Of a stretch of DNA of 64,000 bases, positions 1 through 1,218 are shown one piece after another. Source of the DNA: Sedimenticola sp. (GTDB lineage: Bacteria; Pseudomonadota; Gammaproteobacteria; Chromatiales; Chromatiaceae); the NCBI GenBank assembly GCA_027068915.1, contig JAMOLT010000041.1:977-64976 (forward strand), read 5' to 3'. Numbering within the stretch: position 1 is the first letter of the stretch; each line of letters opens with the position of its first letter. Under the pieces are notes generated by a model that worked only from the letters and a program-made list of their open reading frames with translations, was not told the DNA's origin and did no database searches. Both the position numbers and the translations under genes were made by a program.

Positions 1-243
1 CCCATATCTTGATGGAAAATTTAAAAAATTAAAGGACACCATCGTGAATATTACTCGCACAAGCACATATGCACTCATAGCACAAAAAATCACTTTCATG
101 AATAAGAGAATGGCACCTATTTTTCCCCAACTATTGCCGGCACCAAGCGCTTGAACTAAAAGCTCCCAAGAAATAACCATTTTTGAATTATCGGCAAACT
201 GCTCTTGATGGTAACTGGTAGGTATCTTGTTCCATTGGATCAT
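1..243 (-). CDS. possible partial AT-rich hydrophobic protein running off the left edge
   Basis: Manual translation from ATG at 243 stays open to base 1 (MIQWNKIPTSY...WGKIGAILLFMKVIFCAMSAYVLVRVIF...); no family recognised. Confidence 0.25.
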   Translation of the reverse strand, partial: MIQWNKIPTSYHQEQFADNSKMVISWELLVQALGAGNSWGKIGAILLFMKVIFCAMSAYVLVRVIFTMVSFNFLNFPSRYG

Positions 244-296
244 GTCAGAGCGTGAGCAAAAATTGCGATTGACAATTGAAGGACAAACCCTCAAAA

Positions 297-325
297 TTTG
301 CCCCACTTTGCCCCACTTTGCGCCA
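297..325 (+). repeat. tandem TTTGCCCCAC x2 plus a third imperfect copy overlapping the tRNA 5' end
   Basis: tttgccccac tttgccccac tttgcgcca read directly. Confidence 0.8.
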
Positions 326-396
326 GTAGCTCAGCTGGATAGAGTACTCGGCTACGAACCGAGCGGTCGGAGGTTCGAATCCTTCCTGGCGCGCCA
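320..396 (+). tRNA. tRNA-Arg(ACG)
   Basis: 77-nt cloverleaf GCGCCAG...CTGGCGC-GCCA; D-loop AGCTGGATAG; anticodon loop CT-ACG-AA; T-loop GGTTCGAATCC; encoded CCA. Confidence 0.98.
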
Positions 397-405
397 TATC
401 CCGGA

Positions 406-432
406 AAGCCCACCAAACGGTGGGCTTTTTTT
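406..432 (+). terminator. intrinsic terminator after tRNA-Arg
   Basis: aagcccacc-aaac-ggtgggctt followed by a T-run. Confidence 0.85.
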
Positions 433-525
433 GTGTATTTGGAGTTGGCACATTCGAACCTCCGACTCAAAAGGCCGGTTCGACAAGCGCCGACAGGTGC
501 GCAGCATGAGTGCGTTGCGTGAATC

Positions 526-580
526 ATCCTTCCTGGTGCGCCATATCCCGGAAAGTTCACCAAACGGTGGGCTTTTTTGT
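526..580 (+). repeat. direct-repeat copy of the tRNA-Arg 3' end plus terminator (first copy 379-434)
   Basis: atccttcctgg(c/t)gcgccatatcccggaaag(cc/tt)caccaaacggtgggctttttt repeated 147 bp downstream. Confidence 0.92.
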
Positions 581-651
581 TTGTGTAAAAACGGGATTCA
601 AGCCGTTATACTCAGTGATCACCGCGATTACTACAACAGCCGGGTTTTGGG

Positions 652-1218
652 ATGAACGAAGAAAATGTGGAGAAGATGGCTGCCTGCTATCACGATATCA
701 TTGAAGGTGTTGGGGAAGATATAAGCAGGGAAGGCTTGCTGAAAACCCCCATGCGCGCCGCCAAGGCCATGGAGTTTTTGACTCAGGGTTACGGGCAGTC
801 CCTGGAGGATATCGTTAACGATGCAATTTTCCCGTCAGAGAATGACGAAATGGTTATCGTCAAGGATATTGAACTCTATTCCCTCTGTGAGCACCATATG
901 TTGCCATTTATCGGCAAGGCACATGTTGCCTATCTGCCGAAAGGAAAAGTGATTGGCTTGTCCAAGATTGCCCGAATCGTGGATATGTACGCCCGGCGCC
1001 TGCAGATTCAGGAGCAGCTTACCACCCAGATCGCTTATGCCATCCAGAATGCGATCGGCGCGGCGGGAGTTGCAGTGGTGATTGAGGCTTCTCACTTGTG
1101 CATGATGATGCGTGGGGTGCAAAAACAGAATTCTTCCACCACCACTTCCATGATGTTGGGGGCATTCAGGAACAATCACCGCACCAGGGATGAATTTCTT
1201 ACCCTGATCAAATTGTAA
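652..1218 (+). CDS. folE: GTP cyclohydrolase I
   Basis: [39 protein letters not shown] motifs. Confidence 0.97.

Follow-up and report, generated by a model that had tools for sequence, protein, structure and literature searches.

A compact RtT-like unit behind a tRNA-Arg(ACG) gene of Sedimenticola sp. with an antisense arm matching its host tRNA

The tRNA-Arg(ACG)-folE locus

The window (the whole stretch of DNA analysed, 64,000 nucleotides from Sedimenticola sp.) carries close to its start a tRNA-Arg(ACG) gene followed by a small repeated unit, with folE directly after it; the same order is found in relatives. The features of this region are listed in Table 1. The promoter-like site upstream of the gene is its putative promoter, as judged from its similarity to the consensus. 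Between the -10-like hexamer of this site and the 5′ end of the tRNA sits the tandem of TTTGCCCCAC, which had been pointed out in the initial annotation and is real. The closest relatives (L010 and L011) carry a single TTTGCCCCAC; the tandem is therefore a lineage-specific 10-bp duplication of the leader and lies outside the element.

Table 1. Features of the tRNA-Arg(ACG) locus (window positions) and of two further RtT-like loci in the same genome (contig positions)
Feature	Position	Strand	Evidence or detail
Promoter-like site of the tRNA-Arg gene (TTGACA, 17-nt spacer, CAAAAT); promoter function putative	269-297	+	consensus scan, 10/12 matches
Tandem TTTGCCCCAC x2, GC-rich tRNA leader	297-306 / 307-316	+	repeat scan
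tRNA-Arg(ACG), host gene	320-396	+	ARAGORN; Rfam tRNA model, 64.7 bits
Target of the antisense 15-mer: tRNA nt 46-60 (variable-loop end, T-stem 5′ strand, T loop)	366-380	+	inverted repeat, 15/15 complementary
Direct repeat, copy 1: tRNA nt 59-76, 3′ trailer, terminator 1	379-434	+	repeat and terminator scans
Intrinsic terminator 1, stem-loop then T run	403-430	+	terminator scan; 12-bp stem, T7
Linker, remnant of an antisense copy of nt 61-72	435-451	+	49% mean identity, nine species
Segment B, perfect antisense of host tRNA nt 60-46, ATTCGAACCTCCGAC	452-466	+	inverted repeat
A-rich variable loop TCAAAAGGCC	467-476	+	65% mean identity in the genus; length 10-16 nt
Segment D: GGTTCGA (sense tRNA nt 52-58) and an invariant C	477-484	+	17/17 aligned units
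B-D stem, 7 bp (TCGAACC with GGTTCGA)	454-460 / 477-483		present in minimum-energy folds
Segment E, hairpin cassette inserted at tRNA position 58/59	485-525	+	compensatory pairs
E hairpin 1	487-491 / 496-500	+	loop GACA
E hairpin 2	510-513 / 517-520	+	loop GTT; closing pair 507-523
Tandem G-A pairs flanking hairpin 2	508 with 522, 509 with 521	+	
Segment A′, second copy of tRNA nt 59-76, ATCCTTCCTGGTGCGCCA	526-543	+	repeat scan
Second trailer copy and intrinsic terminator 2 (stem-loop 550-577, two U-G pairs, T run)	544-585	+	repeat and terminator scans
Short RtT-like unit after tRNA-Ser(GCT) (L198)	contig C10:22000-22529	-	own genome
Two 176-nt long-form units between tRNA-Arg(TCT) and tRNA-His (L197)	contig C8:1-517	-	own genome

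Architecture of the unit

The unit starts 55 nt past the tRNA-Arg(ACG) gene. As stated in the initial annotation, the 3′ end of the tRNA and the terminator are repeated downstream: the repeat scan returned a direct repeat of 53 nt (379-431 / 526-578) with 94% identity and a spacing of 147 nt, which continues at a small offset (426-437 / 576-587). The change of CC to TT in the second terminator stem keeps pairing as G-U, and the terminator scan finds both hairpins. We also recovered the perfect 15-nt inverted repeat between 366-380 and 452-466 (100% complementary), for which the chance expectation inside 1.5 kb is about 0.001 by our own estimate. The 94 nt between the repeats hold no plausible coding sequence, and the open reading frames over 297-585 traverse the tRNA and the terminators.

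GGTTCGA (477-483) is followed by 42 nt (484-525) and then by ATCCTTCCTGGTGCGCCA (526-543), so that the copy of tRNA nt 52-76 is split exactly between the T-loop positions 58 and 59, again in agreement with what had been described. Segment A′ is identical to the tRNA gene (379-396) at 17 of 18 positions, the single difference being a C-to-T change. In relatives, A′ matches the local variant of the tRNA, CTGG or CGGG. The C-to-T change, at tRNA position 70 (CTGGCGC to CTGGTGC), is shared by the window and the first unit of L013; the two carriers are different species and both retain the C in their tRNA genes.

Taken as a whole, the unit represents the last third of its host tRNA in folded-back form. 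Its parts come in the order antisense arm (nt 60-46), A-rich loop, sense nt 52-58, GC hairpins at 58/59, sense nt 59-76, trailer and terminator.

Several simpler descriptions of the region were discarded. A degenerate second tRNA gene on either strand can be set aside, as ARAGORN and Rfam give one tRNA and the minus strand holds only nt 46-60 in sense. A tandem of the whole tRNA with a period of 147 does not fit, as 467-525 is unlike tRNA nt 1-58. The sense copy starts at nt 59 and might recall the 18-nt primer-binding site of retroviral type; the repeat extends into trailer and terminator, and it was therefore copied from DNA or from a precursor, not from the mature tRNA. Weak Rfam matches to sX4, the rnk leader and the Phe leader were driven by the tRNA or the terminator.

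Inheritance at the folE locus and further units in the genome

Positions 200-900 of the window were searched against 40 related genomes. Nearly all members of the genus showed the order tRNA-Arg(ACG), unit or units, folE, and so did a second genus of the family. Strains with an empty site had been envisaged for comparison, and none was found at the tRNA-Arg(ACG)-folE locus among the relatives examined. The unit is vertically inherited in the genus. Tandem copies vary from one to three per genome, as expected of unequal crossing-over between direct repeats; the window has a single unit, G019 has two and the complete genome G010 has three. Distal units of such arrays are often truncated at arbitrary points (L019, L020, L021_u3, L023_u2, L027_u2, L029_u3, L048_2 and L052_2). 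In two species of the genus, represented by L019 and L020, the truncated unit is the only one present, and the unit is thus dispensable.

No integrase and no foreign DNA were detected near the unit, either among the ORFs of the window or at the loci of the relatives. Separately, we observed an insertion of about 4 kb between the RtT-like array and folE in another genome of the same genus (G006, L031:1116-4963). Judged from their translations, its ORFs probably specify ordinary metabolic enzymes, namely a protein similar to ornithine cyclodeaminase and subunits of an opine- or sarcosine-type oxidase; no integrase was recognised among these translations.

Within its own 2.83-Mb genome, the spacer of the window (432-528, 97 nt) is single-copy. 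Two more RtT-like loci are present among the 35 tRNA genes of this genome, with sequences that are different and host-specific. The unit behind tRNA-Ser(GCT) carries a 17-nt antisense segment GGATTCGAACCCTCGAT, a mutated GGTTTGAC and a 3′-end copy with one mismatch. The two long-form units of L197 lie inside a Pro-Arg-His tRNA operon with no terminator between, and each terminates in ATCCTGCCGGGCGTGCCA; because of this position they must be co-transcribed with the tRNAs. As for gene order, tRNA-Ser(GCT) is found directly upstream of tRNA-Arg(ACG) in relatives and on another contig in the genome of the window.

The antisense arm follows its host tRNA

Units of like build were found behind other tRNAs. 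In G023 they follow tRNA-fMet and tRNA-Lys(TTT), and their antisense 15-mers (CCTACGAC and CCTTCGAC, vs CCTCCGAC) match their own T-arms. We searched for such units with a pattern consisting of TTCGAACCNNNGAC, 5-25 nt and GGTTCGAC. It matched in 15 of 151 genomes of the family (Sedimenticolaceae), and the reversed control pattern in none. A wider scan, with one genome per species, matched in many more genomes; among the carriers in the 80 matches listed are Ca. Thiodiazotropha, Steroidobacteraceae, Nitrococcus, Thiohalophilus, Salinisphaera, Wenzhouxiangellaceae and Lysobacteraceae.

A tRNA lies just upstream in 34 of the 80 matches listed, the hosts being fMet, four Arg isoacceptors, two Lys, two Thr, Asn, Pro and Tyr. 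The co-variation of the antisense segment with the host tRNA had been fixed beforehand as a test, and it was borne out: at nt 49-51, the three positions left free by the pattern, the antisense complements the host in all 34 independent loci, which comprise 12 different T-stem triplets. The window unit belongs to a family of small tRNA-attached units, so that the outcome named beforehand as refuting, a lone copy that does not co-vary with its host, was not observed. The other 46 matches listed are mostly chance hits in other phyla; several of them are evident units whose host tRNA is off the contig or past the 400-nt limit (for example L140 and L145). Host tRNAs found by the pattern also include Pro(GGG), Pro(TGG) and Arg(CCG/TCT/TCG).

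The same behaviour is observed within one isoacceptor, as the antisense tracks each of the tRNA-Lys(CTT) T stems GAAGG, GTAGG and GCAGG. In hosts whose T stem includes a G-U pair (Arg, fMet), it is the 5′ strand to which the antisense corresponds, so that the G50-U64 pair of tRNA-Arg is answered by a C. The arm is therefore genuinely complementary to the tRNA and does not duplicate its 3′ strand. In all lineages the identity of segment B stops sharply at nt 46 and at nt 60, and the junction falls at exactly 58/59 in all units behind the different tRNAs. Across several orders of Gammaproteobacteria, at least 15 tRNA species have RtT-like units behind them. The window unit is homologous to these units behind many other tRNAs, and the host-specific parts always match the local tRNA. 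A local duplication artefact, considered in the initial annotation, does not account for a unit that nearly all species of the genus carry at one and the same locus and that has its like behind other tRNAs.

We also considered whether hairpin 1 (GCGCCG...) might pair with the 3′ strand of the acceptor. Such pairing does not track the host in the fMet, Lys and Pro units, and the resemblance in Arg is thus a GC-rich coincidence.

Selection on the arms and hairpins

Nine species of the genus were compared, and conservation is given as mean pairwise identity. The antisense 15-mer (B) and GGTTCGAC (D) both reach 100%. The hairpin cassette (E) is at 81%, close to the folE coding sequence (80%), followed by trailer and terminator (71%), the variable loop (65%) and the linker (49%). 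The constancy of GGTTCGAC does not come from conversion by the tRNA, since its last C is absent from the tRNA.

An alignment of 17 short units was examined for covariation. Six pairs are altered on both sides across hairpins 1 and 2. Among them is the outer pair 507-523, which brackets the tandem G-A; nine units have C-G there, four have U-A and one has U-G. In total, 94.6% of cells are paired, vs 21-40% when the partners are slid, and none of 500 shuffles reached the observed value. The B-D stem gives no covariation support, as its 7 bp are invariant. Thus, with B and GGTTCGAC fully conserved, hairpins that change in a compensatory way and a linker that drifts, the unit is under selection. 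Purifying selection acts on B, D and the hairpins, and the selected form is most likely a structured RNA on the tRNA strand.

Folded alone, the unit has a stability z of -1.2, which is nothing unusual. We further inspected the loops of segment E in 55 units (window 485-525 and loci L010-L156). C(GNA)G accounts for 69 of 90 triloops, and 111 of 131 hairpins are closed by C-G. Triloops of the C(GNA)G type are best known for very stable mini-hairpins of single-stranded DNA, less for RNA. This loop preference is unexplained if the element acts as RNA.

A probable compact variant of RtT

The organisation described above is that of RtT, a kind that the initial annotation had not mentioned and for which, to our knowledge, no function has been accepted since 1991. 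In E. coli K-12, the tyrT-tyrV spacer and its three 178-bp rttR repeats read GAACCTTCGAC-TAA-GGTTCGA-GC hairpins-CGAATA up to the junction, and then ATCCTTCCCCCACCACCA. The window unit is very probably an RtT-type module.

The Rfam model of RtT (RF00391) has a gathering threshold of 45 bits. It gave 132.9-137.5 bits on the E. coli units, and longer units of the same family as the window scored just above the threshold: 47.8, 47.3 and 46.0 in L058 (tRNA-Lys) and 46.3 in L035 (tRNA-Arg(ACG)). No match was obtained in window positions 1-1200 at E ≤ 10, nor in the whole genome of the window, L197 and L198 included. Of 300 genomes of the class, 57 (from 53 of 271 genera) have matches, which lie behind tRNA-Glu, Ser, Gln and Tyr.

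Comparison with the longer units indicates what the model misses. Segment E of the window equals that of L035 minus two middle hairpins; common to both are the start (AAG-hairpin-GCAG) and the end (GA-hairpin-GA-ATC, then ATCC after the junction). In L150 the antisense is continuous over 27 nt (nt 46-72) and perfect except for the base opposite U60, and L148 and L153 carry a continuous antisense of nt 46-68. The closing helix is present in L014, L015, L148, L150 and L153. No complement for such a helix was found in the window linker (435-451), which is only 49% conserved in the genus. RF00391 is thus blind to the window unit because the middle hairpins and the closing helix have been lost, the antisense of nt 61-72 has decayed to a linker, and the unit has its own terminator.

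In the L058 region (genome G121, same family), we noted on the minus strand a match to the group I intron model RF00028 at 2079-2339 (36.9 bits, below the cut-off of 50; E 2.5e-06). It occupies the spot of a Pro-(Arg)-His-Lys operon where ARAGORN misses the expected tRNA-Arg(TCT). From its sequence and position, this site could be an intron-containing tRNA-Arg.

The window unit is a real, conserved and compact variant of the known but unexplained RtT kind and does not constitute a new class. As an explanation of the whole, we favour a compact two-hairpin tRNA-trailer repeat of the RtT type that is under selection, with a structured RNA as the preferred form; we regard this reading as probable. 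The RtT kind is accordingly much wider than its Rfam model. That a stripped-down unit is still under selection indicates which parts matter, and its small size makes it a convenient construct for experiments on the effects of RtT-like RNA on tRNAs. In genome annotation, island boundaries should not be assigned from duplicated tRNA 3′ ends of this kind.

Strand, expression and possible mode of action

According to the sequence scan, both terminators function on the + strand only. The stem changes peculiar to the window copy are all C-to-T on the + strand (5 of 5), with G-U pairing kept. A count of G-U pairs over 55 E segments gave 35 for the plus and 68 for the minus strand; this count is crude and does not favour the + strand, so that strand assignment rests mainly on context. 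In E. coli, rtT is reported (Bosl and Kersten 1991, as cited in later work) to be an RNA released by processing of the tyrT transcript, on the tRNA strand. In the window, a consensus scan detected no promoter-like site in the linker. With a strong terminator 1 upstream, expression of the unit would thus require read-through.

We consider it somewhat more likely than not that the unit acts as an RNA on the tRNA strand. Such an RNA would arise when transcription runs past terminator 1. The duplicated signals of the tRNA 3′ end and the terminator would define its 3′ end, and it would fold as the B-D stem plus two hairpins.

That the antisense arm acts on its own tRNA is a tentative proposal, which we put forward with reserve. 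The best hint that it may pair with the real tRNA or its precursor is that the complement of nt 46-51 has no partner in the unit and yet tracks the host everywhere. The B-D stem-loop would expose this complement in its loop, much as antisense RNAs present their seeds, and from there pairing could proceed with the 5′ half of the T-arm of an unfolded or precursor tRNA-Arg. The effect might be on maturation or quality control of its own tRNA; alternatively, the RNA might be a decoy for factors that bind tRNA 3′ ends. In the minimum-energy fold of the read-through RNA (320-580), the 15-mer pairs with the T-arm, and refolding of the precursor tRNA by the antisense arm, as suggested in the initial annotation, is possible according to this model. 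The read-through fold also joins the anticodon region (CGAACCG) to CCGGTTCG; this pairing was rejected, as the variable-loop sequence that it needs is not conserved in relatives.

A more general scheme can be imagined, in which RtT-type modules are trailer-encoded antisense devices, each specific for its tRNA and spread by a protein-free, target-templated fold-back copying. The window unit would then represent the minimal core, made of the antisense 15-mer, GGTTCGAC, two hairpins and the 3′ tail, whose B-D stem-loop would start to pair at nt 46-51 and then unzip or clamp the T-arm of a cognate tRNA that is damaged or still a precursor. We give this scheme as a speculation that is more probably wrong than right by far.

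Alternative explanations

The most serious alternative is a non-autonomous mobile or self-templating element acting at the DNA level. It would insert at T-loop position 58/59, or recombine via GGTTCGA, and copy both strands of its target; the antisense and sense arms would serve as guides for target recognition. A homologous core (GGTTCGAC, hairpins, CGAGTA) with host-matched arms behind at least 15 tRNA species is what such an element would leave, as are a junction exactly at 58/59 everywhere and the existence of tandem arrays. The C(GNA)G loops, typical of stable mini-hairpins of single-stranded DNA, point the same way. The layout with antisense to the left and sense to the right may be likened, as a lead, to that of bridge or guide RNAs, which read two target strands. 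Against this, genes for recombinase, reverse transcriptase or transposase are absent at the loci examined, the spacer is single-copy in its genome, and one locus is stably inherited across the genus with a divergence that resembles that of the neighbouring gene. Neither terminal repeats of transposon type, nor target duplications, empty sites or fresh insertions were seen. A MITE or other non-autonomous transposon of the usual kind was rejected on similar grounds, with no terminal inverted repeats, no target-site duplication and no near-identical dispersed copies in the 2.83-Mb genome. The initial annotation had proposed a non-autonomous element that targets tRNAs: the existence of a family of small tRNA-attached units was confirmed, and its mobility was not, given the single-copy spacer and the lack of terminal repeats and target duplications. 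We judge a mobile element unlikely, and favour the selected RtT-type trailer repeat.

The unit could also be a by-product with no function: the tRNA 3′ end would long ago have been duplicated, by fold-back or in tandem, and the copy would now be drifting and slowly undergoing deletion. Template-switch (‘quasi-palindrome’) correction would then keep the 15-mer identical to the tRNA, unequal crossing-over would do so for the sense copy, and selection would play no part. Arbitrary truncation of distal array units, two species with a stump only, and the decay of linker and closing helix agree with this scenario, and so does the match of the direct repeats to the tRNA variant of each locus, which gene conversion would bring about. 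However, the last C of GGTTCGAC differs from the tRNA and is nonetheless 100% conserved, and segment E is conserved like coding DNA with compensatory pair changes. Moreover, the sharp ends of B (nt 46 and 60) in all lineages are unlike repeated conversion tracts. These points make a by-product improbable and argue for the selected trailer repeat.

Finally, a scar of the attL/attR type, left by a tyrosine-integrase island once inserted in the tRNA-Arg T-loop and later deleted, was suggested by a duplication that starts in the T-loop, the classical crossover region of integrases; it can practically be dismissed. Trailer and terminator are duplicated in full, and the intervening 94 nt are conserved structured sequence common to units at other tRNAs and to E. 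coli RtT. The unit is inherited with compensatory changes and is carried by all relatives that have the locus, and folE comes next, with no integrase, foreign DNA or island remnant.

Comparison with known systems

Among functional parts of tRNA transcripts, E. coli 3′ETS-leuZ, listed among the sRNAs of that species, is a 3′ external transcribed spacer that pairs with other sRNAs. To this extent it resembles the unit in that a non-coding 3′ trailer segment of a tRNA transcript acts, or would act, through base pairing. It differs in being without copies of the tRNA, whereas the window unit is complementary to its host.

The likeness to attL/attR sites lies in a second tRNA 3′ end, starting from the T-loop, downstream of an intact tRNA gene. 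In contrast to such sites, the spacer is a conserved structured module found in all relatives and at many tRNAs.

The resemblance to RtT of E. coli goes much further into detail. Both lie directly behind a tRNA gene on the same strand, with tandem repetition possible, and in both the final part copies nt 59-76 of the host tRNA down to ...CCA (ATCCTTCCCCCACCACCA in E. coli, ATCCTTCCTGGTGCGCCA in the window). An antisense T-arm followed by GGUUCGA forms a stem in each case (GAACCUUCGACCAAGGUUCGA in E. coli, 452-466 with 477-483 in the window), and small GC hairpins are placed at 58/59. The last hairpin is framed by tandem G-A and followed by CGA(A/G)T(A/C), the junction and ATCC; a tandem G-A helix has been reported for RtT by covariation analysis (PMC8250186). 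The differences are mainly those of a reduced form. The window unit has two hairpins and an E segment of 41 nt, whereas E. coli has four and about 85 nt, and it is without the conserved closing helix between the antisense of nt 59-70 and the 3′ copy. Its antisense is perfect over nt 46-60, while that of E. coli covers mainly nt 59-68 plus an imperfect 46-56. Each short unit has an intrinsic terminator of its own, and the host is tRNA-Arg(ACG) instead of the tRNA-Tyr of E. coli.
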